This document shows, one piece after another, positions 1,229-33,947 of a DNA stretch of 64,000 nucleotides; within the stretch, counting starts at the first letter, position 1; each line of letters opens with the position of its first letter. A program made the translations under genes and the position numbers. The DNA lies in the IMG/VR virus record IMGVR_UViG_2784132107_000001. The stretch is one strand, 5' to 3'. Source of the DNA: a virus (taxonomy: Duplodnaviria > Caudoviricetes). Under the pieces are notes generated by a model. It saw only the letters and a list, made by a program, of their open reading frames with translations. It did no database searches and had not been told where the DNA came from.

Positions 1229-1495
1229 TTACTTCTTCAGCCGCGCCGTGTTCTTCATCTGGTTGTAGGTGTAGTCCGCCGGTTTCTTTCCTGCCGCCTT
1301 CGCGGCACGGTCCCTGGCCCGCTCCGCGGCCGTCATCGAGTTACGCGCTTCGCCCTTCGGGGTGAGCTGCTGCGTACCCTTCTTCAACACCCCATTCTTC
1401 TGCAACGAGGACGTGGCGACCGCCGCGGCCTGCGACTTGCCCATCCCCTTCTTCTCAAGCTGGCCCTCGAGCCGCTCCAGGATCTTCGGCATCAC
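1229..1495 (-). CDS. Small basic hypothetical phage protein
   Basis: 88 aa, Lys-rich; start overlaps the stop of the giant gene; last gene of the late arm. Confidence 0.75.
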   Translation of the reverse strand: MMPKILERLEGQLEKKGMGKSQAAAVATSSLQKNGVLKKGTQQLTPKGEARNSMTAAERARDRAAKAAGKKPADYTYNQMKNTARLKK

Positions 1496-4400
1496 TGCTC
1501 TCCCTGCTGCTGTATGTAAGCACCCCGGCTGCGGCCCGTCTCAACCCCGCCGACGATCGAGTTCTCCCGCCGGCCCTGGTTCATCGGCGCACGCAGCAGC
1601 GTGGAGAACGGCGAGGGCTTCAGGCCGTTGCTGCGCATCTGCTCCTGCATCGTTTTCCACTGACCCTGCAGGTCACGCAGCGTGGCCGAGTCACCGTCGC
1701 GGTAGGCCTTCGCGTACTGGTTGACCATCTGCTGCGAGTGCTGCTGGAAGAACGTCTGCGCGTTGTGGAACTCGGCGGCCCGCCGGTAGCTGTCCTCGAT
1801 CTTCATCGGCGTGACGCCCGCGGCCTGCAGCGCTACATCAAATGCCGAGATGTCTTCTGGCTTGATGATCGTATCGTTGCGGCTGTTGGTGAGGCCATCG
1901 GCCGCGAGGCCATACGCCTTCATCCCGTCGCGGATCCCCGAGGGCACCATCTGCTCGAGCCCGTGGTAGTAGTCGCCCTGCATGATCCTGCCGGCACCGG
2001 TGAGCACATTCGGGAGCGTGGTACCCAGCATCGGCCCCAGCGCGGCGAGCATGTACGACTTGTAGTCATCCGCGGCGGTCTTGCCACCATTCACGTTGGC
2101 GCGACCGAGCGGGTTCAGGATGTCACCGGCCCCGATGCGGTTCGTGAGATCGATGCCGAGCGCAGCCGGGGCACCGTGCAGGATGATATCCGCCAGGAAC
2201 TTGTCGCCGATCACGCGGCGGAAGTACGACTCCGGGTCCTCGGGTACGTCCGAGTCGCTGAAGATCTTCTGGATCGCATAGGCCAGCAGCTGCGCGCCGG
2301 GAATGCCCATCGCGCCGGCCAGCACCCCGTAGTGCAGCGCCATGTAGCCCAGTGCTTTCCCGCCAACCACACGCTCTTCCGGCGAGGCGCCGGTAAACGC
2401 CTGGTGCGCGAGGCGCGCGACGATCGACGTGTGGATGATGTTGAACTTGCGGAACTGCGCCATGAGCCGCACCGGCAGCCCCGGGGCGTTACCCGGCATG
2501 AGGGCGCGCGGCGTGTTGGCCGCCGAGTAGTCCCCGTACGCCTGGCGCACCACGTCACGGGCGAACTTCGTCCCGGCCGCGTGCGCCGCGTCAGCGTCAC
2601 CGCCCCGGTTGAGCGAGTCAGCGTGCGCGAGGCGGTAGGCCGCCAGCGCCGAGAGGGTGCGGTTATAGCCTTCGAGACCGCGCGCGACCATCGTCACCTT
2701 GTTCATCGCTGTGGCACCAGCCCGGGTCAGCTGGTTGCTGGAGAACACCTCCGGCTTGCCGTACTCCGACTCATGACCCGCATCCAGTACCCCCTGCCTC
2801 TGCAGCGTGGTGAGCATTCCACGCTCGTCCCCCACGCGGCTCACGTGTTTGCTCACGTCGAGCTTCAGCGCATTGCCCCCCTTCCCGAGCTTCGCCGTAT
2901 CCTGCGCCGCCCCGATCATCTCCTTCCACGCTGCACCGTAACCGTGTCGGGCGCCCAGTATCGGGTGCGCCATCGTCACAGGCTGTGCGATGTACTGCAG
3001 GTAGTGCGCGGGCGAGGTCAGCAGGCGCCAGGCCGTGTTGAACATCAGCAGGTTGTCCATGACGCGCGACGGCCGGTTGTTCGCCTGCGCGATGGCCCGC
3101 TTCTGGAACTCGTTGACGATGTCGGTGCGCGCGGGACGCTGCGCGCCGCCCTGCTTCGCTTCGTCGGCCATGCCCTTCATCGCGTCGGCGATCTTCGCGC
3201 CGTGCAGCATGGTCGAGACCAGCTGGTTGTGGCGCAGCCCGTTCTGGAAGAACGACTCAAGCCCCTGCTTCGCGATCACGCCAGGAATGTTTTTACGCTT
3301 GAGCTCCCCGGCGCGTGCACTCGTGTCCGCGATGGACTGCAGGTACATGTCCGTGAGCGCGCGGTCCATCGCAGCGGCGTACTCCTTGCCCTGCGGCGTG
3401 CCGGTGTCGAAGTAGTCGCGCATCTTCGCGCGCCACTGTTCGAGTTGCCGCCAGCTCGCACCGTGGCTGTCCTTGAAGTACACGTCCTTGGCCATGGGCT
3501 GCGCGTTGCCGGCACCGTACTTCGCCTCAAGCTCCTTGGCGAGTGCACGCGCTTCGCCCATCGTGCGGGTCTGCGTGTACACGTAGTGGTCCGGGTCCTT
3601 CCTGAGCGTGTCCATGCGCGGCGTGTCTTCCGCCGCTTCCGCTGCCTTGTAGGTGGCGGACTTGGCTTCCACGACATAGTCGCCGTGGCGGCGCAGCGGC
3701 AGGTAGGGGCCGGGCATCTCTGCACCGGCCACCCTGGGGGCGTCGGCCCCCATCATCTTGCGGACCTCTTCCTCGGCCGCGCGCAGCTGCGAGCGCTGCG
3801 CGGCACCGTGCTCGTTGACCGCCTTGATAACCTCCTGCACCGACGCGGGGAGCGCATTGAAGCGGGCCTTCGTGGCAGGGTCCACGGTGACGCCGGACTT
3901 CCACGCGGGGTCATAGCCCCACTTCTGGGACATCGTCGTTTCAGTCAGGAAGGTGCTCGCCATGTCACGCTGCGGCAGCGAGAGCGCCGAGGCCTTCTGG
4001 CCGATTTCACCGAGCTGGTTGTCGAGCGTGCGACGGTAGGCGTCCTGCTCGCCGTGCAGGTCCATGTACTCGCGGGGGGCTTCCATGCCCAGACGTGAGG
4101 ACGCCCAGTCAGCGAGATCGTGACCGAACGTGAGCGCCTGCGTGCCGCGCTTCGCGGCGTGCGCGAGGGTGTCGTAGGTGCGCTGGACCGGCGAGGCGAG
4201 CCCTTCCGGCAGCGCCGAGATCAGACGTTCTGCGCGGGGTCGGCGTTCGTCGACGGAGTCGTGGTCGTAGTCGGGTCCACGGGACTGGAGGCTACGCTCT
4301 GGGCTCCCGGCTGCGTCTGCTGTTGCTGCATCGCCGCTTCCGCCTTCGCGAAGTCGAACGGCTGCAGGTTCGCCGGCTGCGCGATTTTCGAAACCCGTGG

Positions 4401-7400
4401 CGCGCTGTTCTGCGCCATCGCCCGAGCGAGCGAGAAGCGCTTCTGGAGATTGCTGGACATCGTTGGTCACCTCGCGCATGAATGCGGAAGATTCGGGCGC
4501 GTATCGTTCGAGAATTGCACGGCCGCGGGGGTCAGTGTACATCGAACCGAGCTGCGCAAACAGCTCCGCCTGCGCATCCTGGCGGTCAAGGTCAGGGTGT
4601 TGTCCGCGATTGAGCGGGTAGTCGAAGTACTGCTCGAATGCACCGTCCGTGGGGTCGTTGGACCAGAGGTCATGCAGCTCGCGCGCGACGCTGCCTTCCG
4701 GCGCCCAGTCATCGGCGAACTCTTCAAGCCGCATCTCCGGCTGCACCGAATACACCCCGCCATGCAGGGCGTTGTCGATGCCGTGCCAGAGCTCATGGGT
4801 GATCGCGTGCTGCACCAGCGCGGGGCTGCCATGCTGGAGCACCGAGGCGTTGAGCGTGATCTTGACCGTGCCGTCGCGGTTCAGGGTGATCTCACCGCCC
4901 ACCCCATCGGGCAGACGGCTGACCGACCAGTGGTCCACCGAGTCCACCGCGTGGGGGATACCCAGGTGGCGCAGGTTCGCCGTGACGGTCGACACGTTAC
5001 CATAGCGCGCTTCCACCCCGCGGAACTCGGCGCTGCGCGACTGGTACGCATCGGGGTAGTCGTTGGAGTCGAGCCGGTTGACGATCTGTGCCTTGTCGGC
5101 GAGCGTGCCGTTGCCGTTCCCGACGAACTCATCCCAGTCACTGCGCAGCGACTCAGGCAGGTCGTCATAGGCAACGTTGCTCGGCACGGTGGCCTCGTGT
5201 GCCTCCCACGCCTCACGGCCCCGGTCCTCGGAGGTCTTCCAGGCGTCGGGGTTCTGCTTCGCCTGCGCTTCGAGCTCGGCGACTTTCGTCCTGGCCTTGA
5301 GCCACTTGTCCCTGTCGACGCGCGAGCCGTCGCCATTGGCGACTAACGCGTCCCAGTCGTTGCGCAGGGCTTTCGGCAGGTCGTCATAGGCGACGTTGTC
5401 CGCCGAGGTGGCTCCGTGCGCATCCCACGCCTCACGGCCACCGTTCTCGGAGGCGTTCCCGGCGCCGGGGTTCTTGCCCGCCGGTGCCTCGATCGCAGCG
5501 AGTTTCTTCTGGGCCTTGAGCCACTGGTCGGTCAGGTCGCCCGTGTCCTTCCACTTCGACTGCGAGCCACCGGCCGACTTGACGACACCCATGCTCTGGG
5601 TGACGCCACGGTCCTCATCGCCATGCAGCTCGTTGCCCTCGACGCGCATCTCGTCCGCCGAAGCGGGCGTGGCGTCTTCGGCCTTCGCCGCGTGCTCGTT
5701 CTCGTCGTAGGCCGTCTCCCCGGTCGGCACATCGGCAGGCTCTTCATGCATGAGCTGCATGATGTCTTCCGGCGTGTAGCCGAGCCGGTTGGCTGCCGCG
5801 ACCACCTTCGGGCCGAGGCTCTTCTCGCCGACGATCTGTGTGATGCGCGAGTGATCAAGCCCGTACTTGTCGCCCAGCTCACGGTGCGACATGTCGTTGA
5901 CGAAGTGATCCTGCAGGATGTTGAAATCCCGCTCAGCGTTCTTCGTGCCGGCCAGCGCCTCGCGCCACAGCCGGTCACGCGCCTCGTTCTTCTGCGCCGA
6001 GTCAGCCGTTGTTGCCGGTGCGGGTTTGACGGCTGGTGCTTGCGGCGCTGCAGGAGCGGGCTCGGACAGAACCTGTTTCTGGATCTTGACGAAGCCGGGG
6101 CTGCGGTCCGGGACCTCGTGGATGTTGGCGATATTGTTGCGATCGAGGTAGCGCAGCAGATCCGCGCCGATACCTCTCCCCCGTGCGTCTTCTGTGACTG
6201 CGATGGAGTCGAGCATCCCGCGTTTGATATGGGCGGCACCGACCACGTTGTCGCCATCCAGTATCTGCACCCGCGTGTTACCCGCCTTCGCTGCATCCAC
6301 CCGCGCCGTCAGGCCGTTGCCCAGATCCTCGGTGTGGGTCAGCACGGGGTCAGTGGTGAACTGCTTCGGATCTGCGTTCGCGCGGTCAAACATCTGCGCG
6401 CGAAACTCGGCCTGCTTCTGGACAGCAGTCTTCCCCCCGAGGGTGTCCTTTACGTTATCCGCAAAGTTCGAGAACAGCTTCCCTACCGGCGTACCCTTCG
6501 GTTGCGTCCTGCCTACGGTACGCCCTGCACCCGGCGCCTGACCCGCAAATGTGTTGTTCTTCTGCGCCTGCGCGAGCGCATCCGTTACTTCCTGGGCTTC
6601 GGTCCCGCCAGCTGCATGTCCGCCACCAGGTACAGCGGCATCCCCAGCCGGGCTGCTATCCGCTGCTCCCGCGCCTCGTACGCTGCTGTCTCGTGCGGCT
6701 CCTGCTTGCTCGTCAAGCGGTTGTCGCAGCTCACCTGCTGGTCGAACTGGTACGGGTCCCACGCCTGCGGGTCGTCCAGCAACGTCCCCGGCAGCGGCTT
6801 GCTGTTGCTGTCCATTTCCACCTCTCCGTTTCAGTTGGATGAAACCGCCCGTCTTCTGGACAGGCGGCGTTACAGGCTGTTCTTGCCCGGCTTGGGCAGA
6901 TCCTGGCTGTACATCTGCCGGTTGTTGTCCTTGAAGTTGGGCGACTTCGGCGGCTTGGGCGCTTTCGGCGGGGCTGCTACCTTCGGCGGCGGCGGGGCCT
7001 TGAGGGCCTGGGGCGCTGCTATCCTGGGCGCTGCCGGCACCGCGATTTTCGGGGCCGACACTTTGGGTCCCGCCAGGTTGGGCGTTGCTATCTTGGGCGC
7101 CGCTGGCATTGACACCTTCGGTCCCGCTCCGATCTTGGCCATTTACATCTCCATGAAGAATCTTGTTGCGCCACGCAGTCAGGATCTGGACCTTGTCCAG
7201 CGACGTCTGGGCCTTTGAGTTCGCCAGGCGGTTGATCGCCATGTCGATCTTCGCCGCCGCCTGTGCGAGCGTCGGCGCTTCGTTGACACCGGTCAGCCTC
7301 ACCAGCTTGTCGATGTCACTCATCGCCGGGTACGGACCCGGTTCGGTGCTGCGCTGGTCGGGCGCGGCGACGCGGTCTTCGCGCCAGGCATCCGAGAGCA

Positions 7401-8934
7401 GCTGTTCGGCGTCGTGCTGCACCGGAGACTTCTGCGCCTCCTTCGTGAGCAGCTTGTCGACGTACCTGTTGTAGTCCGGCGTGGTGCCATGCTCCTGGCC
7501 GTCGAACGCGTGCGCGCCGACCACCACCTCGCCAAGTGCCGGGTGCACCAGGTCTGCGCGCGGGCCGACCTTCGCAAAGAGGCTCTGCAGCAACCCCTCG
7601 CGCGCCTGCGCGCTCTGGGCCTGCTGGGCAGCGGCCTGGGCCTGCGGCTGCTCACGTATATCGAACAGGTTGCCCTGCGTCATCGGCCCCTGTTCAACCT
7701 GGGTCTGCGGCTCGTGCAGCGTGAACGGCGTCTCTTCGCCAAGCGCTGCCTGCACGTCCTGTTCAGTGGTCGCGGGCGGACGGCCGATGCCGAGGTTGCG
7801 ATCGATCATGTCCTGCACCGGCAGGCCCTGCCCGGGACGGATGACGGGCACCCCGTTCGACGGCTGGGTGTCGTACAGGTCACCCTGCGGGCCTGCGTCA
7901 AGCGCCGTATCGTGGCCGGCGTTGAGTGCGTCAACATGCCCGCCAACGTTGTACGGGTTGATCGGGAACAGGTCACCCTGCTGCCCCTGCGATGGGTCGA
8001 GCGCTTCCTCGACAGGATCCGCCGTAGGCGTCCGCTCGTTCGCACCGGGGAGCGCCGAGCGCTGGCCGTGGAACATGCCCATGCCGACACCCGCGAGCGC
8101 ACCGCCGACAAAGCCACCGAGCGCGGACGAACCGACACCCTGGCTCCATGGCTTGCCTTCACCGACGTTCTCACCGGCCGTCGAGCCGGCGTTCATCGCC
8201 GCACCCTGCACACCCTGATCGACTGCGTTGGCGGTGGCACGCCCGAGGAAGTCTCCCGCGAAGCGCGTGCCGAGTGCAGTCGCGGCGGGCGTGAGGAACC
8301 TGCTGCCGAGCCCCACGGTTGCAGCGGACACGGTGCCAGCGACACCGGCAGCCTCGTACATGCCCTTCGTGTTGTTCGGGTCCTGGTCGAGCACGTTCTG
8401 CCCGGCTTCACCGGCGGACTGCGCGCCGAATACGAGCGGTGCGGCGGGGCCAGCGGCCATCCCTACAGCGAGGCCCGGCGCCATCTGCAGCGCGCGACCG
8501 GCGAGCGTGCTCGGGTTGCGCAGCATCGCACCGGCCGTCTGGCCGAATCCATGCGCCTGCTCAACCTGCTGCTCGGCCTGCTGGCGTGCGGCCGAATAGT
8601 CACGTGAGAGGTCCGCCTGCTGCTGGGCACCGTTGAGGTCCTGCGGCAGCGGCATGCCGTGCTGCGCGAGCATCTGGCGATAGTCTTCCATCGCCTGGCT
8701 GGACGTGTTGCCCGAGGCTTCGCTGCCGAGACCCTTCAGCGCCTGGCCAAGCCCCGAGACGCCCTTGAGCACATCCACGCCGAGATCCGCCACGCGACGG
8801 AACGGGCTCTGCCGCGGATGGTCGTCATCGTCCCCCGCATCGACAGGCTGGAACCCCTGCAGCACGCCACCGGACTGCTGGTCAGACTGGGCAGGGCCGG
8901 CGCCTACCGGCTGGAACCCTTCAAGGATCGGCAC
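1492..8934 (-). CDS. Giant internal virion/ejection protein of large polyvalent type (GNAT-like, HTH, HExxH peptidase-like, PLxRFG-like C-terminal region)
   Basis: 2480 aa. Motifs: DSIAVTEDARGRGIG (GNAT motif A-like), MSHRELGDKYGLDHSRITQI (HTH), ITHELWHG (HExxH), PYLPLRRHGDYVV. Last large gene after the other ejection genes. Confidence 0.8.
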   Translation of the reverse strand: MPILEGFQPVGAGPAQSDQQSGGVLQGFQPVDAGDDDDHPRQSPFRRVADLGVDVLKGVSGLGQALKGLGSEASGNTSSQAMEDYRQMLAQHGMPLPQDLNGAQQQADLSRDYSAARQQAEQQVEQAHGFGQTAGAMLRNPSTLAGRALQMAPGLAVGMAAGPAAPLVFGAQSAGEAGQNVLDQDPNNTKGMYEAAGVAGTVSAATVGLGSRFLTPAATALGTRFAGDFLGRATANAVDQGVQGAAMNAGSTAGENVGEGKPWSQGVGSSALGGFVGGALAGVGMGMFHGQRSALPGANERTPTADPVEEALDPSQGQQGDLFPINPYNVGGHVDALNAGHDTALDAGPQGDLYDTQPSNGVPVIRPGQGLPVQDMIDRNLGIGRPPATTEQDVQAALGEETPFTLHEPQTQVEQGPMTQGNLFDIREQPQAQAAAQQAQSAQAREGLLQSLFAKVGPRADLVHPALGEVVVGAHAFDGQEHGTTPDYNRYVDKLLTKEAQKSPVQHDAEQLLSDAWREDRVAAPDQRSTEPGPYPAMSDIDKLVRLTGVNEAPTLAQAAAKIDMAINRLANSKAQTSLDKVQILTAWRNKILHGDVNGQDRSGTEGVNASGAQDSNAQPGGTQSVGPENRGAGSAQDSSAPGPQGPAAAEGSSPAESAQAAEVAQLQGQQPADVQPGSAQAGQEQPVTPPVQKTGGFIQLKRRGGNGQQQQAAAGDVAGRPAGVGPVPVRPAGELRQPLDEQAGAARDSSVRGAGAADSSPAGDAAVPGGGHAAGGTEAQEVTDALAQAQKNNTFAGQAPGAGRTVGRTQPKGTPVGKLFSNFADNVKDTLGGKTAVQKQAEFRAQMFDRANADPKQFTTDPVLTHTEDLGNGLTARVDAAKAGNTRVQILDGDNVVGAAHIKRGMLDSIAVTEDARGRGIGADLLRYLDRNNIANIHEVPDRSPGFVKIQKQVLSEPAPAAPQAPAVKPAPATTADSAQKNEARDRLWREALAGTKNAERDFNILQDHFVNDMSHRELGDKYGLDHSRITQIVGEKSLGPKVVAAANRLGYTPEDIMQLMHEEPADVPTGETAYDENEHAAKAEDATPASADEMRVEGNELHGDEDRGVTQSMGVVKSAGGSQSKWKDTGDLTDQWLKAQKKLAAIEAPAGKNPGAGNASENGGREAWDAHGATSADNVAYDDLPKALRNDWDALVANGDGSRVDRDKWLKARTKVAELEAQAKQNPDAWKTSEDRGREAWEAHEATVPSNVAYDDLPESLRSDWDEFVGNGNGTLADKAQIVNRLDSNDYPDAYQSRSAEFRGVEARYGNVSTVTANLRHLGIPHAVDSVDHWSVSRLPDGVGGEITLNRDGTVKITLNASVLQHGSPALVQHAITHELWHGIDNALHGGVYSVQPEMRLEEFADDWAPEGSVARELHDLWSNDPTDGAFEQYFDYPLNRGQHPDLDRQDAQAELFAQLGSMYTDPRGRAILERYAPESSAFMREVTNDVQQSPEALLARSGDGAEQRATGFENRAAGEPAAVRLREGGSGDAATADAAGSPERSLQSRGPDYDHDSVDERRPRAERLISALPEGLASPVQRTYDTLAHAAKRGTQALTFGHDLADWASSRLGMEAPREYMDLHGEQDAYRRTLDNQLGEIGQKASALSLPQRDMASTFLTETTMSQKWGYDPAWKSGVTVDPATKARFNALPASVQEVIKAVNEHGAAQRSQLRAAEEEVRKMMGADAPRVAGAEMPGPYLPLRRHGDYVVEAKSATYKAAEAAEDTPRMDTLRKDPDHYVYTQTRTMGEARALAKELEAKYGAGNAQPMAKDVYFKDSHGASWRQLEQWRAKMRDYFDTGTPQGKEYAAAMDRALTDMYLQSIADTSARAGELKRKNIPGVIAKQGLESFFQNGLRHNQLVSTMLHGAKIADAMKGMADEAKQGGAQRPARTDIVNEFQKRAIAQANNRPSRVMDNLLMFNTAWRLLTSPAHYLQYIAQPVTMAHPILGARHGYGAAWKEMIGAAQDTAKLGKGGNALKLDVSKHVSRVGDERGMLTTLQRQGVLDAGHESEYGKPEVFSSNQLTRAGATAMNKVTMVARGLEGYNRTLSALAAYRLAHADSLNRGGDADAAHAAGTKFARDVVRQAYGDYSAANTPRALMPGNAPGLPVRLMAQFRKFNIIHTSIVARLAHQAFTGASPEERVVGGKALGYMALHYGVLAGAMGIPGAQLLAYAIQKIFSDSDVPEDPESYFRRVIGDKFLADIILHGAPAALGIDLTNRIGAGDILNPLGRANVNGGKTAADDYKSYMLAALGPMLGTTLPNVLTGAGRIMQGDYYHGLEQMVPSGIRDGMKAYGLAADGLTNSRNDTIIKPEDISAFDVALQAAGVTPMKIEDSYRRAAEFHNAQTFFQQHSQQMVNQYAKAYRDGDSATLRDLQGQWKTMQEQMRSNGLKPSPFSTLLRAPMNQGRRENSIVGGVETGRSRGAYIQQQGEQ
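4221..4460 (-). CDS. Candidate overprinted (+1 frame) gene nested in the giant gene
   Basis: GAGGTG-7nt-ATG; 79 aa; overlies a low-complexity linker of the host protein. Confidence 0.5.
   Translation of the reverse strand: MSSNLQKRFSLARAMAQNSAPRVSKIAQPANLQPFDFAKAEAAMQQQQTQPGAQSVASSPVDPTTTTTPSTNADPAQNV
6585..6815 (-). CDS. Candidate overprinted (+1 frame) gene nested in the giant gene
   Basis: GGAGAGG-TGGAA-ATG; MDSNSKPLPGTLLDDPQAWDPYQF..., protein-like composition. Confidence 0.55.
   Translation of the reverse strand: MDSNSKPLPGTLLDDPQAWDPYQFDQQVSCDNRLTSKQEPHETAAYEAREQRIAARLGMPLYLVADMQLAGPKPRK
6870..7142 (-). CDS. Candidate overprinted (+1 frame) Pro/Lys/Ala-rich basic protein nested in the giant gene
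   Basis: GGAG-7nt-ATG; repeated PK(V/I)xxP units; GC-rich third positions in this frame. Confidence 0.6.
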   Translation of the reverse strand: MAKIGAGPKVSMPAAPKIATPNLAGPKVSAPKIAVPAAPRIAAPQALKAPPPPKVAAPPKAPKPPKSPNFKDNNRQMYSQDLPKPGKNSL

Positions 8935-22230: not shown

Positions 22231-22889
22231 ACGAACCTCTGGAATTCGACCCGGTCGGACGTCCGCGTGAGCGACTTGTCGACCTTGATCTTTGCCTTGT
22301 CCATGGCCGTGCGAAAGAGCCGCGCGTAGAGCGCCGCGGCCTTCTCGTCCGAGTAGGGCTGGTTGTGGGTCGCGTACAGCCGCGCGCGGGCGCCCTGCGC
22401 AATCTCCTCGAGGTAGTGCTCGTAGAGCGCGCTGTCCACCGTCGTACTTGAGCGTGCAGGTGCTAACGCCACGCGCATGGTGAGTGCGTTCGAGAGGGTC
22501 GAGACGGGGTACGGTACGAGCAGCAGCTCCGGCTCGATGATCCGGGTGTAGTACGCGGGGTTGCCCTGCAGCGTGCGCCAGTCAAGCGTGCGGTAGATGT
22601 ACGCCAGCTGGTCGATCGACTTCGGGATCAGCAGCACGTTGTTGTACCAGGCCTCGACCACGTCGACCACCACGGTGTTCGGTGGCGTATCGATCTCGTA
22701 GTTCGACACGTTGATGACGCCGGTCACGGGGTCGAGGTCCTGCTGCCAGTAACGCGTGCGGCGGCAGAACTCAATCACCGCGTTGCGGATCGCGTTGATG
22801 GCGACGAACTCCGGCACGTCCGGGATGTACGGCGTGACTTCGGTCAGGAAGTTGTCGAACGGGACGGCAAAGCCGTAGGTCTCGCTCAC
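22227..22889 (-). CDS. Head-tail adaptor (tail tubular A-like)
   Basis: 220 aa; AIRNAVIEFCRRTRYW; position after the capsid block. Confidence 0.65.
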   Translation of the reverse strand: MSETYGFAVPFDNFLTEVTPYIPDVPEFVAINAIRNAVIEFCRRTRYWQQDLDPVTGVINVSNYEIDTPPNTVVVDVVEAWYNNVLLIPKSIDQLAYIYRTLDWRTLQGNPAYYTRIIEPELLLVPYPVSTLSNALTMRVALAPARSSTTVDSALYEHYLEEIAQGARARLYATHNQPYSDEKAAALYARLFRTAMDKAKIKVDKSLTRTSDRVEFQRFV

Positions 22890-23575
22890 GAGGTCGCTCC
22901 CGGCTCAGGCTGGCCCTTGGCCGGTCCCAGCGTCTGGTTGACGTTGTTCGTCGTCTCGGCCTTGTCCTTGGCGCCCAGCGCGGCGGTGAAGGCGGTCCAG
23001 TAGCCCTGGGCGAGCTGGAAGCCGGGCGCGTACTCCGCATCCTTGCTGTTCGCGCGGAACAGCACGTAGTCGAGCAGCGTCGTCTCGAGCACGTCGTTCA
23101 CCGCAATCGTGCTGGCTTCCGTCGTGAGGTCCGCCGGCACCCGCGAGTAGTTGACCTCGACGTAACCGGTACCGTCACTCGGCGGGTACACATAGAAAGC
23201 GGTCTGGTCCTGGATGTCGTAGACGTAGTTCTGCGCCGTGGACGAGGCGGCCGACGCGTGCCACGTGGGCATCTGGGCGTCGATCAGCTGGCGCGAGACA
23301 ATGCGCACGACGCGGCCCGGGGTCGCGCCGTTGGTGCCCATGTTGCGGTAGATGTCGAGCAGCAGCCAGCCATCGACAGGGATGGCCTGGCGCGTGCCCG
23401 CCACCAGCCGGACCGCAACCGTCGTGCTGTTCGAGTTCGGCTGCATCAGCACGACCTGGCGTTGCGCGTCATTAAGCCAGCCGAGCAGCTCCGTCCGCGT
23501 CCATCGGGTGTTCGCGGTGTCGAGCAGCTGCGTGGCCGCCTTGTTGATGATCGCCGTGCCAGTGATCGTGCCCAT
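22886..23575 (-). CDS. Head-tail adaptor/neck protein
   Basis: Probable start MGTITGTAII at 23575; RWTRTELLGWLNDAQR. Confidence 0.65.
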   Translation of the reverse strand: MGTITGTAIINKAATQLLDTANTRWTRTELLGWLNDAQRQVVLMQPNSNSTTVAVRLVAGTRQAIPVDGWLLLDIYRNMGTNGATPGRVVRIVSRQLIDAQMPTWHASAASSTAQNYVYDIQDQTAFYVYPPSDGTGYVEVNYSRVPADLTTEASTIAVNDVLETTLLDYVLFRANSKDAEYAPGFQLAQGYWTAFTAALGAKDKAETTNNVNQTLGPAKGQPEPGATS

Positions 23576-23584
23576 GATGCCCAG

Positions 23585-23610
23585 AGAAAACGGGGGGCCA
23601 CGCCCCCCGG
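23585..23610 (-). terminator. Rho-independent terminator
   Basis: CGGGGGGC-GTG-GCCCCCCG then TTTTCT on the minus strand. Confidence 0.6.
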
Positions 23611-23613
23611 ATA

Positions 23614-23988
23614 TCAGGTCGAATGCGTCGCGAACCAGTTCAGGCCGTCCGGCGACTGGAACAGGCAGTTCTTGCCCACCGCCACCGAGAACGCGACGTT
23701 CACCGTGCCCTGGTTGACGTTGCCGCCGACCGGGGGATAGACCAGCAGCGCGTTGGCGCCGCCATTGAACACGTTGATCTCGGCGCCGCCGCCGGCCGGC
23801 AGGATCGCGCCAGCGTTGGCGGCCACCGTCGAGAAGCACACGTAGTCCGAAAGCGGGATCACGGCCGCGTTGGCCTGCGAGCTGGTGCCCGCACCCGACA
23901 GCCCGGTCGTGAGAAGGCTGCCCACGATGGACTTGGCGGTGTTGTCCCAGATGCCGCCCTGGCTCACCAGGTTTTGTTCGATAGTCAT
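23614..23988 (-). CDS. Probable capsid decoration protein
   Basis: 124 aa, beta-rich; immediately after the major capsid gene. Confidence 0.6.
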   Translation of the reverse strand: MTIEQNLVSQGGIWDNTAKSIVGSLLTTGLSGAGTSSQANAAVIPLSDYVCFSTVAANAGAILPAGGGAEINVFNGGANALLVYPPVGGNVNQGTVNVAFSVAVGKNCLFQSPDGLNWFATHST

Positions 23989-31819: not shown

Positions 31820-33220
31820 TCAGGCCCAGTGCCACGCCACCTTCTCGACCGGCTGCACCTTCGAGCGCATGCTGCCCCCTGTCAGGTTCCCGTCCGCATG
31901 CAAACAGGCGTACTGGTGCGCGTCGGCGATGTGACTGTGCATGTTCTTCTCCGGCTTGTCCTCCATCTCGCCGTTGGTGCGCAGCTTGTAGCGGTACCCG
32001 CCGCGCAGCGCCGCGATGAGCGCGCGGCACCGCGGATCGATCAGGTGGGCCGGCTTGCTGTCCACCATGCGGGTGAGCCACGAGTCGACCGCGCTGATGC
32101 GCGCGGGAATCGCGTTGGTGCGCGCCGGGATGACCCGGAAGCCCTCCTGCTTGAGGATGTCGAACACGCTGCGCTCATCGGTCTGGGCGCGCTGCTGGCC
32201 GGCCGGGTCGCCGATCACGAGCACGTTCATCCCGGCGAAGCGCTGCGCGAGCAGGGGTTTCAGCTTCTCGCGGCAGAAGCGCAGCGCCCCCATGCCGTCC
32301 GAGGTGAGGTTGTCGTAGGTGAGCAGCCGCCCCTGCGGATCGATCTGGTTGATCGTGCAGGCCGGCGTGAGCCCGAAGTCAAAGCCGATCATCAGCGGGT
32401 GGGTGCTCATGCGGATCGGCCGCAGCTCGTTTTTCGCGACGTGGATATCGCGGTCGAACGCGCGGAACACCGGCTGGCCGGCAAGCGACTTGCCGAACTT
32501 CGCATGCACGTAGACATCGATCCAGTCCTGGCTCTTGCCCTCGCAGAGGTTTTCGTAGTAGTCCGTCTTCAGGTACTCGAGCCAGTCCGCCTCCGGGCTC
32601 ATGCCCGAGGGCTGGATCCACGCATCGGCGTTGGACGGCGGCTCCGAGATGAACTGCTCCCAGAACGTGTCGGCGTCGGGCGGGTTACTCATCCCCCAGA
32701 ACTTGTCGATCGCGTGGCCGAAGTCATCCTGGCACCCTACCCCGTTGTCCGCCTTCGACGGGTAGCGCCCGAGACGCGCCTGCAGCGCGCGGAACACGTC
32801 CGGGTTCAGCTCCCGGAACTCGTCGGCGATGCCGAAGGTCGCCTGCAGCGACAGCAGCCGGCGCACGTCGTTCGAATCATCGAGCCCGCGGAACAGCACC
32901 TCGCACTCCACGTCGGCGAATTTCAGTGTGAACTTGTAGTTCGTCTTCTCGAAGGTGCCGGCCACGCCGTCCGGGAACCAGCGAAGCCAGTCTGGTATCG
33001 ACGTGTCGCGCAGCTGCTCGCGCGACTGCCGGATCCAGATCGCCCGGGAGCGCCGGATACCGTCCCGGCACGCCTTGATCTTCCTCGCCTCGTGCGCGAC
33101 CTTGAGGATGCCGGCGGTCGTCTTGGTCGACCCCACGGGGCCAATCACCAGGTTGATGAACTTGTTCGACGTGAAGAAGTCGACCAGCGACGGAGGGGGG
33201 GTGTAGACGAGACCGGTCAT
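31820..33220 (-). CDS. terL: Terminase large subunit
   Basis: Start MTGLVYTPPP at 33220; Walker A GPVGSTKT, Walker B IADEFRE, nuclease GFDFG, GDPAG, HIADA. Confidence 0.93.
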   Translation of the reverse strand: MTGLVYTPPPSLVDFFTSNKFINLVIGPVGSTKTTAGILKVAHEARKIKACRDGIRRSRAIWIRQSREQLRDTSIPDWLRWFPDGVAGTFEKTNYKFTLKFADVECEVLFRGLDDSNDVRRLLSLQATFGIADEFRELNPDVFRALQARLGRYPSKADNGVGCQDDFGHAIDKFWGMSNPPDADTFWEQFISEPPSNADAWIQPSGMSPEADWLEYLKTDYYENLCEGKSQDWIDVYVHAKFGKSLAGQPVFRAFDRDIHVAKNELRPIRMSTHPLMIGFDFGLTPACTINQIDPQGRLLTYDNLTSDGMGALRFCREKLKPLLAQRFAGMNVLVIGDPAGQQRAQTDERSVFDILKQEGFRVIPARTNAIPARISAVDSWLTRMVDSKPAHLIDPRCRALIAALRGGYRYKLRTNGEMEDKPEKNMHSHIADAHQYACLHADGNLTGGSMRSKVQPVEKVAWHWA

Positions 33221-33678
33221 TCGACGAGAGGTTTGGAGGGGGTGATGTCGATCTCGCGCGGCTTCGAGGTGTCCGGCAGGTTGATCGTGATGGAGAAGCC
33301 CGTGCCCTGCTGCGCCGTGGCGGACTGTTTGGGCTCCTTCCACTTGACCAGCGCCTCGGTGAGCGCGAGCTTCTGCATGAGCGGCACCTCGGAGGACAGG
33401 CCGATCTTGCCGATGTCGTCGAGCATCATCTCGGCGAGCAGCCCCGCCTTGGCCCGGAAGGTCCACCCTTCCGCCTCGAGCTCCGCGCGCTTTTTCTGCA
33501 CCGCGTCGAGAAACGGCTTCCACTGCACGAGCGCATCCCACCGGGCGCCCTTGAAACCAAAGCGCCGGGCGATCTCCACCGGGTCCTCGATCCCCTTCGC
33601 CATCTCGGCCACCATCTCGGCCGGCACGTTCAGGTTCGCATCTTCAAGTGGGTCGAAGGTGACCAGCTTGTCACTCAA
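33217..33678 (-). CDS. Probable terminase small subunit
   Basis: GGAG-8nt-TTG start; helical; ends GFSITINL; directly upstream of terL. Confidence 0.65.
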   Translation of the reverse strand: MSDKLVTFDPLEDANLNVPAEMVAEMAKGIEDPVEIARRFGFKGARWDALVQWKPFLDAVQKKRAELEAEGWTFRAKAGLLAEMMLDDIGKIGLSSEVPLMQKLALTEALVKWKEPKQSATAQQGTGFSITINLPDTSKPREIDITPSKPLVE

Positions 33679-33947
33679 AATCGCAGCTCCGAAATGGACG
33701 TGACAGCCGCCATCGGGATGGTCATGAGGTCGCACCACTCAGACGAGCACTCATCCGCGCCGCGGGAGAGCGCAAGCGTGATGGCGTGCTCGTCCATGTT
33801 GACGAGATACCCCACCGTCTCGCAGTACGACGGCTCGAACATGTAGGGTTCCGCAGTGCGCCGCCAACCCCCTACCGTGCAGGAGTCGGTCCACTCCACG
33901 AGGTAGATCTTCGGGCGCGGGCGGCGGTGGTCAGTTTGCTTGCCCAT
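33675..33947 (-). CDS. Hypothetical phage protein
   Basis: 90 aa; YLVEWTDS..W..CETVGYLV. Confidence 0.7.
   Translation of the reverse strand: MGKQTDHRRPRPKIYLVEWTDSCTVGGWRRTAEPYMFEPSYCETVGYLVNMDEHAITLALSRGADECSSEWCDLMTIPMAAVTSISELRF

Follow-up and report, generated by a model that had tools for sequence, protein, structure and literature searches.

The window analysed here is a 64,000-nucleotide (nt) stretch of DNA (IMG/VR virus record IMGVR_UViG_2784132107_000001) that forms part of a four-contig bacterial genome of 9.2 Mb. One giant gene of the window, hereafter the host gene, is a single open reading frame (ORF) of 2480 amino acids (aa), and three small ORFs, termed A, B and C, lie wholly inside it on the same strand in its +1 frame. 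We propose, with a probability of roughly 0.82, that A, B and C are independently initiated small genes placed in linkers of a giant ejected or packaged protein, the gene being dual-coding at three places. A and B are in all likelihood real genes, and C, less secure than A and B, is probably one as well. An original prediction, made from the letters of the window, had held that the nested genes are real and that the giant ORF reads through them as linker. This reading is supported by codon phase, by conserved ATG codons and Shine–Dalgarno (SD) motifs, by the substitution pattern and by the openness of the host frame. The features concerned are as follows.

1492..8934, minus strand: host gene, single ORF, 2480 aa, giant polyvalent virion-type protein
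6870..7142, minus strand: candidate nested gene A, +1 frame, 90 aa, ATG start, P/A/K-rich polycation with an isoelectric point (pI) of 10.8 and a net charge of +12.5
7149..7152, minus strand: SD-like GGAG of A, 6 nt spacer to the ATG, host codons GGA-GAx
6585..6815, minus strand: candidate nested gene B, +1 frame, 76 aa from the ATG (78 aa from a GTG at 6821, ORF 6585..6821)
6821..6827, minus strand: SD-like GGAGAGG of B, 5 nt spacer to the ATG, host codons CGG-AGA-GGT
4221..4460, minus strand: candidate nested gene C, +1 frame, 79 aa, ATG start, beginning at the end of the HExxH domain
4468..4473, minus strand: SD-like GAGGTG of C, 7 nt spacer to the ATG, in the conserved host residues (R/K)-E-V

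The predicted frame holds for each ORF, (8934 - start) mod 3 being 1 in all three cases. The SD motifs had been described correctly, as had the spacers of B and C, whereas the spacer of A is 6 nt rather than 7; the motif of C may be a by-product of host conservation. The peptide predicted from A contains NNRQMYSQDLPK, with PK(V/I) occurring five times and PK nine times, and ends in a conserved C-terminal motif, NFK.NNRQMY(S/A)QDLPKP.K. The peptide from B is the best conserved of the three, and its core, WD..QFDQQVSCDNR..SK.EPHETAAYEAREQRIA.RLGMPLY(V/L)V, looks like that of a real folded peptide. The peptide from C has a conserved N-terminus, MS.N.QKRF.(L/M)AR, and then an S/T/P/A/Q-rich tail whose length varies. 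In the host frame, residue composition counted per span bears out the claim of low complexity over all three: the commonest residues are A/G/Q/S/P over A, A/G/P/Q/V over B and A/R/G/D/E over C.

Codon phase marks three spans of the host gene

The GC content of the host gene at codon positions 1/2/3 is.71/.48/.81 overall. Inside the nested spans, the host-frame values are.80/.62/.55 for A,.91/.66/.42 for B and.84/.59/.54 for C, and the values in the ORFs' own frame (.62/.55/.81,.65/.43/.92 and.60/.54/.84, respectively) follow the normal coding pattern. The GC-richest position thus shifts within A, B and C from host position 3 to host position 1, which is position 3 of the +1 frame. Glutamine codons change in the same places, with a CAA:CAG ratio of 17:9 inside the nested spans versus 4:138 outside them. 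The breakdown of host-frame codon bias over the nested spans had been predicted, and both the flip in GC phase and the glutamine codons confirm it. A, B and C are the only same-strand ORFs inside the host gene that pass a GC-phase coding filter. A codon-model scan of the gene flags only aa 586-751 and 1466-1536, always in the +1 frame; the same spans come up with a model trained on the host gene and with one trained on 20 other window genes. Among those 20, which served as controls, 31 of 1697 windows were flagged, 29 of them at the 5′ ends of two ORFs whose calls reach too far upstream and overlap the neighbouring ORFs.

A long open +1 frame is in itself unremarkable in DNA of this composition. 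The +1 frame of the host gene has 46 stops in 2480 codons and 13 stop-free stretches of at least 81 codons, and in 1000 synonymous shuffles of the host gene it stays open over A in 35%, over B in 70% and over C in 82%. An SD-like motif of at least 4 nt precedes 15 of the 52 ATGs in the +1 frame, B and C having the two best. In a single sequence at ~66% GC, the openness of the +1 frame is not beyond chance. The combination of open frame, SD and repetitiveness, on which the prediction had leaned, is therefore insufficient alone, and the case rests on the codon-phase signal and the comparative data. These counts, together with antisense ORFs of up to 786 aa, are what could be said for A, B and C being chance ORFs of a GC-rich genome with fortuitous SD-like motifs. 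That explanation is highly improbable, because the flip in codon phase is specific to the three spans and longer +1 ORFs go unflagged, because starts, stops and peptides are kept in six lineages (at 36-48% host identity where measured), and because the substitutions between two close relatives, described below, are mostly silent in the +1 frame and never in the host frame. The longer +1 ORFs in question, of 254, 151 and 121 aa, had not been picked in the original prediction; flagged by neither the filter nor the scan, they fit the picture of spurious off-frame ORFs in GC-rich DNA.

Starts, Shine–Dalgarno motifs and peptides are conserved in six lineages

Protein searches recovered full-length homologues of the host protein at 39-62% identity. 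Homologous DNA came from seven viral contigs (L005/L006, L007/L008, L009, L010 and L016), which together with the window represent six lineages; the closer protein homologues P0003, P0004, P0006 and P0007 lay outside the DNA comparison. Identity to the host protein is 48% for L005/L006, 41% for L007/L008, 39% for L009 and 36% for L010. In L016 the host ORF is 2879 aa long and differently built, yet A, B and C are again present in its +1 frame. L006 was omitted from the tables and tests of nested ORFs, its +1 peptides being identical to those of L005. L008, a near-duplicate of L007, was omitted from multiplied probabilities and identity means and was used in the close-pair test, and L010 was left out of the identity and substitution-rate tables for A and B as too diverged to align.

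All six lineages have a +1 ORF over each of the aligned spans that begins and ends at the corresponding positions and encodes a related peptide. A is P/A/K-rich throughout, with a pI of 10.8-12.0 and a net charge of +11 to +22; B has 26 invariant columns in 11 sequences, whereas the host frame over its core yields A/G/R/P/V-rich filler; C ranges from 66 to 116 aa and follows the HExxH domain in all six. Conservation of SD and ATG in homologous genes, which had been proposed as a check, is high: across seven contigs and three ORFs, 20 of the 21 starts are ATG and one is GTG, and an SD of at least 4 nt lies 3-11 nt upstream in 20 of the 21 cases. Stops or lost starts in the +1 frame of homologues, which would speak against nested genes, were not seen, an ORF with a start codon being present in all 21 cases. 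The SD of A is GGAG at 6 nt in the window, L005, L007, L008 and L009, and that of B is formed by the host codons CGG-AGA in the same five. Both draw on codons that the host genes otherwise avoid, GGA making up 0.5-3.7% of glycine codons and AGA less than 1% of arginine codons elsewhere in the host genes of the window, L005, L007 and L009.

The flip in GC phase is also found in L005, L007, L008, L009 and L010. In the codon-model scan only +1 windows were flagged, over A, B and C in the window, L005, L007 and L009, over A/B and C in L010 and over A and B in L016, with nothing else flagged in the ~2200-2900 codons of each gene. Public data contain B as a separately called protein of 77-88 aa eight times (P0025-P0032), one of these calls coming from an NCBI genome. 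Neither the B of the window nor any homologue of C is recorded as a called protein. Megablast of the host gene against phages and tblastn of B against phages and plasmids gave no match. Scans of genome contigs (P0001, A5) and metagenome contigs (A1, A5) yielded no confirmed match, and those of viral contigs (P0003, P0006) yielded none. P0001 was matched in 2 of 61 relatives (its own genome and a 94-aa fragment), and A5 in 1 of 213 genomes of the genus, namely its own.

These starts also bear on programmed ribosomal frameshifting, by which the +1 stretches would serve the giant protein as alternative C-termini or as internal detours and would give truncated isoforms. SD-like motifs inside genes can stimulate frameshifting, as in prfB and dnaX. 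The main lead for this explanation is an analogous +1 peptide of phage POI1126, which matches the in-frame C-terminal end of phrog_938 (2086-2183 of 2185, E=3e-25), so that such modules can be the C-terminus of a big protein. The same match indicates that such modules can also be fused, which fits a functional link with the giant proteins. A frameshift needs no start codon, yet one is conserved at the head of each span with a coding signal (20 ATG and 1 GTG in 21 cases). In 9 of the 21 cases the nearest upstream +1 stop is only 0-5 codons away from the start (A 0, B 5 and C 2 codons in the window), too close to accommodate a shift site. No conserved slippery heptamer was seen upstream by eye, a formal scan not having been run, and the SD spacing of 5-8 nt is typical of initiation. 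Frameshifting is on these grounds an unlikely account of A, B and C.

Selection acts on the nested frame and keeps the host frame open

In alignments guided by the nested frame, identity in the +1 frame versus the host frame is.69-.81 versus.58-.67 for B and.47-.62 versus.29-.37 for A. A host-guided alignment, which is biased toward the host frame, still puts the +1 frame ahead, with.75 versus.60 for B and.46 versus.35 for A; in five control regions under the same guidance, the host frame is ahead by.06-.15. For A and B, estimates of the ratio of nonsynonymous to synonymous substitutions (dN/dS) by NG86, an estimator of a kind that is biased in overlapping frames, fall below 1 in the +1 frame and exceed 1 in the host frame. 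The per-frame check of dN/dS that had been suggested therefore comes out as predicted for these two; for C the values lie close to 1 when distant pairs are compared. The nested frames of A and B thus show purifying selection.

The close pair L007/L008, a case of recent divergence, gives the cleanest test. The two differ at 19 nt within the nested ORFs; 13 of these changes are silent in the +1 frame, and the 18 host codons affected all specify a different residue. By host position 1/2/3 the differences number 13/5/2. Outside the nested ORFs, 99 codon differences are silent and 89 non-silent, and the counts by position are 58/55/139 (Fisher p=4.4e-6). This pattern bears on the idea that the +1 stretches are relic frames, that is, former in-frame domains or separate genes whose signature is fading and whose peptides are no longer made. 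Gene families remodelled out of frame have been described in bacteria, according to an excerpt of PMC8788219, and give the idea some precedent. A fading signature would, however, not be expected to stay equally sharp in lineages at 36-48% host identity where measured, nor would L007/L008 still show purifying selection in the +1 frame (13 of 19 silent), nor would SDs be kept with rare codons. Relic frames are accordingly very improbable.

Openness of the host frame was assessed against a null in which the nested peptide is fixed and its codons are drawn anew at the frequencies usual in the host gene. Under this null an open host frame has a probability of.002-.46 per case, and the product over 15 cases (five lineages and three ORFs) is 1.6e-16, a figure that overstates independence because the lineages are related, though it points clearly in one direction. 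These values also address the possibility that the giant ORF is not one protein and that several large genes have A, B and C between them, with bridges rarely or never translated. The non-coding-like codon usage of the host-frame bridges, whose residues are conserved no more than the DNA imposes, would suit such a split. All seven contigs nevertheless lack a host-frame stop, set against the chance openness of.002-.46 per bridge; a ribosome in the host frame finds no stop, and indels in the bridges keep the host frame. A split of this kind has a very low probability. Chance ORFs, relic frames and a split giant gene were rejected on the combined evidence of codon phase, conservation, the L007/L008 substitutions and the open bridges. 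The comparison indicates that the residues of the small proteins are under selection and that the host reading is selected for openness only.

Several observations weigh against independently initiated nested genes, or at least against C, in addition to the estimator bias and the relatedness of lineages mentioned above. That the +1 frame is open is unremarkable once the host peptide is given: multiplied over six lineages, the probabilities come to.06 for A,.11 for B and.02 for C. For C, identity in the host-guided alignment is a tie,.37 in the +1 frame and.38 in the host frame; its dN/dS in distant pairs, near 1, does not help; and its ATG, SD and stop fall in conserved host motifs and are possible by-products of these. 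C is unflagged by the codon-model scan in L016, and A lacks an SD at its first ATG in L010. The public calls of B are gene-finder predictions and do not amount to proof of expression. A profile of C searched against a collection of 5.8 billion gave 0 passing sequences among 5414 candidates, so that a called C-like protein is absent there. Pfam, PHROG and NCBIfam searches with A, B, C and their homologues gave nothing above threshold, and a function match is lacking. Finally, the AF2 model of B has a mean pLDDT of 68.4, with a helical hairpin at aa 40-67 as the only structure, at low confidence.

A proposed mode of expression and origin

In the proposed arrangement, each nested gene would be translated through its own internal initiation at an ATG preceded by an SD, and ribosomes coming from the start of the giant gene would read the same DNA as a low-complexity, stop-free linker. 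The linkers would join folded modules, namely an N-terminal part, a middle part with the HExxH domain and a C-terminal DarB-like/PLxRFG part. Such an arrangement would be cheap in GC-rich DNA, where host position 1 coincides with the wobble base of the small gene and is rarely T, the first letter of every stop. The choice of frame would follow from this: with the nested gene in +1, the host reads the small gene's -1 frame, in which T at codon position 1 is rare and stops are rare in consequence. The composition of the host linkers would have the same source, since G/C-rich wobble positions of the small genes give host codons that start with G or C and specify G, A, V, D, E, P, R and Q. We infer that the small genes are the older reading and the linker derived, because codon usage typical of the genome is found in the +1 frames and not in the host-frame stretches; the giant ORF would then have arisen by fusion of neighbouring large genes across the small ones.

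The host gene and its setting

The C-terminal third of the host protein (aa 1854-2433) matches phrog_10089, 'DarB-like antirestriction' (E=1.6e-45), and by tblastn the protein matched the C-terminal part of giant DarB-like/PLxRFG genes in 33 phage records, every match being below 30% identity at 18-25% query coverage. An HExxH motif lies near aa 1380, and H1380, E1381 and H1384 are invariant in the alignment of homologues. Neighbouring genes encode an acyl-CoA N-acyltransferase, virion structural proteins, an internal virion protein (phrog_511, E=6.8e-153) and tail fibres, a layout like that of Bcep22-like podophages, as in Skulduggery. The host gene thus combines the C-terminal domain and the virion-module context of DarB-like/PLxRFG polyvalent virion proteins, and on these sequence features it is classed as the DarB-like/PLxRFG giant protein of a Bcep22-like podovirus prophage. 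The original label of a giant virion gene is reasonable by inference from relatives: the available portion of PMC9144972 reports that the DarB-like protein of JC1 (gp69) was detected in virions by mass spectrometry.

Further observations concern the host gene itself. A GNAT-like module at 6061..6576 of the window (host aa 787-958) is an insertion relative to the closest homologues, which are without it. It recurs at 56-61% identity in P0014 and P0015, polyvalent proteins with no other relation to the host protein, and has the look of a mobile cassette. A tandem duplication lies at 5094..5529 (219-nt unit, 2.0 copies, 77% matches) and encodes two modules of ~73 aa (W.KA...EA.AK.NP.AW...E.GREAW.AH.A....VAYDDLP..LR.DWD), one copy of which is present in close homologues. 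Cysteine is absent from the proteins of six full-length host genes (the window and its L005-L010 homologues, 2157-2513 residues) and likewise from the partial gene of L006 (1872 codons); peptide B has a conserved cysteine. Local GC in the window is 0.60-0.71. Opposite the host gene, on the plus strand, are long antisense ORFs at 1738..4098 (786 aa), 4120..5346 (408 aa) and 5416..7218 (600 aa), which we take as GC-rich artefacts. Shorter antisense ORFs have the usual antisense GC phase, position 3 being high (mirroring host position 3) and position 1 lower than position 2. A scan of 4000..7500 for sigma-70-like promoters found 0, with 0.3 expected.

Elsewhere in the window, the minus-strand ORFs 22886..23839 and 31820..33541 carry another frame's codon signature in their first 60-120 codons and share DNA with two upstream ORFs that look coding, 23614..23988 and 33217..33738. 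Both have probably been called too long, the true start lying further downstream.

Candidate functions of the nested peptides

Structure-based searches added little to the family searches. A PDB profile search gave no match for B and, for A, only a P/A/K-rich enzyme linker (E=0.54), a compositional match; the ESM Atlas gave no usable match for A or B. B was considered as Pfam LPD22 (PF18834) and rejected, three of six members scoring 14.4-14.5 bits (E ~0.045), below the gathering cut-off of 28.6 bits. A profile of B searched against 1.84 billion representatives found two clusters, both of small proteins, with no in-frame fused form and no support for LPD22. The histone-H1-like character that had been ascribed to A stands as regards composition (pI 10.8, P/A/K-rich, five PK(V/I)) and does not extend to a family match, no linker-histone or DNA-binding family having been found; A as a true histone H1 homologue was rejected, since Pfam/PHROG/NCBIfam-type searches gave no family match. 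Rz1-type o-spanins were likewise rejected for all three peptides: A and C have no cysteine, and the cysteine of B, in QQVSCDNR, is far from the N-terminus with no hydrophobic leader, as judged by eye.

In its Dar antirestriction system, phage P1 needs several small proteins to load DarB into heads, and these accessory genes are separate, not nested. The likeness lies in a giant DarB-type virion protein with small accessory proteins, which serves as our model for a functional guess. A requirement for small accessory proteins in the packaging of DarB is also mentioned in an excerpt of PMC9144972. The differences are that A, B and C have no sequence relation to any known family and that they are nested. 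By this analogy, our best guess is that A, B and C would be accessory partners of the packaged and ejected giant protein, made from the same late transcript. More specifically, our guess would make A a disordered polycation that binds a polyanion such as DNA, and B a small helical domain; C, which follows the HExxH domain in every case, would be that domain's partner.

Nested +1 ORFs in other giant phage genes

The same codon-model scan, applied to other giant DarB-like genes, flagged +1 ORFs with a coding signature and an SD and ATG, and never flagged the +2 frame. The ORFs found are listed below.

L019 6385-6699, POI1126 gp30: one nested +1 ORF
L021 6247-6552 and 12835-13041, Atu_ph08 gp21: two nested +1 ORFs and one marginal
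L022 5740-6054 and 3421-3729, PEp14 gp27: two nested +1 ORFs and one weak
L018 12841-13041, PBC5 gp21: one nested +1 ORF
L020 8884-9333, gp28 of Pseudomonas fluorescens SBW25 phage Skulduggery: one nested +1 ORF
L004 1436-1624, viral contig: one nested +1 ORF

Two nested families recur across phages, with identities of.38-.54 in the nested frame versus.22-.36 in the host frame. The five RefSeq feature tables of the published phages contain no nested coding sequence inside the giant genes. We lean towards the view that nested +1 linker genes form a general, unannotated layer of giant DarB-like/PLxRFG genes in many phages, with one to three extra proteins per giant gene that are co-inherited with the modules they serve, and that giant ORFs were fused across such small genes, which kept their function, through their stop-poor -1 frame. 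In Sinorhizobium phage PBC5, the annotated 1.6-kb gap between the DarB-like gp22 and gp21 (L018 6501-8300) is an open frame continuous with gp21, which looks coding and has an NPPF methyltransferase-type motif. PBC5 gp21 is probably longer than annotated, or else gp22 and gp21 are one gene split by a frame change.

Relation to known nested and overprinted genes

Rz1 of lambda-like phages lies wholly inside Rz in the +1 frame, as an embedded spanin gene. The candidates described here resemble it as small same-strand +1 genes inside a larger one, each with its own start and SD and with both frames kept. They differ in that the host is a giant virion protein, that there are three nested genes, that no signal peptide with a lipobox is present, that the positions are host linkers, and that the host reading looks derived and unconstrained. 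Embedded rz/rz1 are annotated in PEp14, and the embedded Rz1 class is mentioned for Bcep22-like phages in an accessible section of PMC9144972. The likeness to overprinted genes, which for small phages and viruses are reviewed in PMC8227390 (consulted in excerpt), is that one stretch of DNA carries two frames and that one reading is compositionally odd and of low complexity. In overprinted genes the nested frame is usually the novel one, whereas here the nested frames are codon-typical and the host stretch is atypical; further, unlike the small genomes in which such genes are known, this is a large double-stranded DNA prophage with no obvious pressure on genome size. B, K and E of phiX174 and L of MS2 are the classical overprinted genes.

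The host gene shares with polyvalent proteins its giant multi-domain form, its DarB-like/PLxRFG C-terminus and its mobile GNAT-like module. Iyer et al. 2017 (PMC5512222) treat such proteins in phages and conjugative elements; in the portion available, the words 'frameshift' and 'overlapping' are absent, 'reading frame' is used once, in another sense, and nested genes are not in the concept as set out there. Within a limited collection of papers, and leaving aside supplements such as the domain tables of PMC5512222, a literature search found no nested out-of-frame genes described in DarB-like, PLxRFG or polyvalent genes. Nested +1 genes as such are known (Rz/Rz1, phiX174). What appears new on the sequence comparison is three conserved ones in linkers of a giant polyvalent virion gene, with an apparently unconstrained host reading and recurrence across lineages.

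Implications

Known out-of-frame nested phage genes are mostly single cases, found in small genomes or lysis cassettes. The present case is distinct in having three nested genes, each in a linker, with selection on the residues of the small proteins and on the big frame only for openness, in six lineages and apparently in other phage families. Annotation would accordingly be missing whole families of phage proteins; the database entries for B all stem from gene finding on short contigs. The low-complexity linkers seen in polyvalent proteins may not be purpose-built spacers but may instead result from the wobble positions of another gene. Giant multi-domain proteins would also have a concrete way to become larger, by fusion across intervening genes through the -1 frame of these, in which stops are few. 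The hidden proteins are candidate packaging cofactors, partners or immunity-like regulators of injected anti-defence proteins, functions of a type that is sought in research on phage–host conflict.

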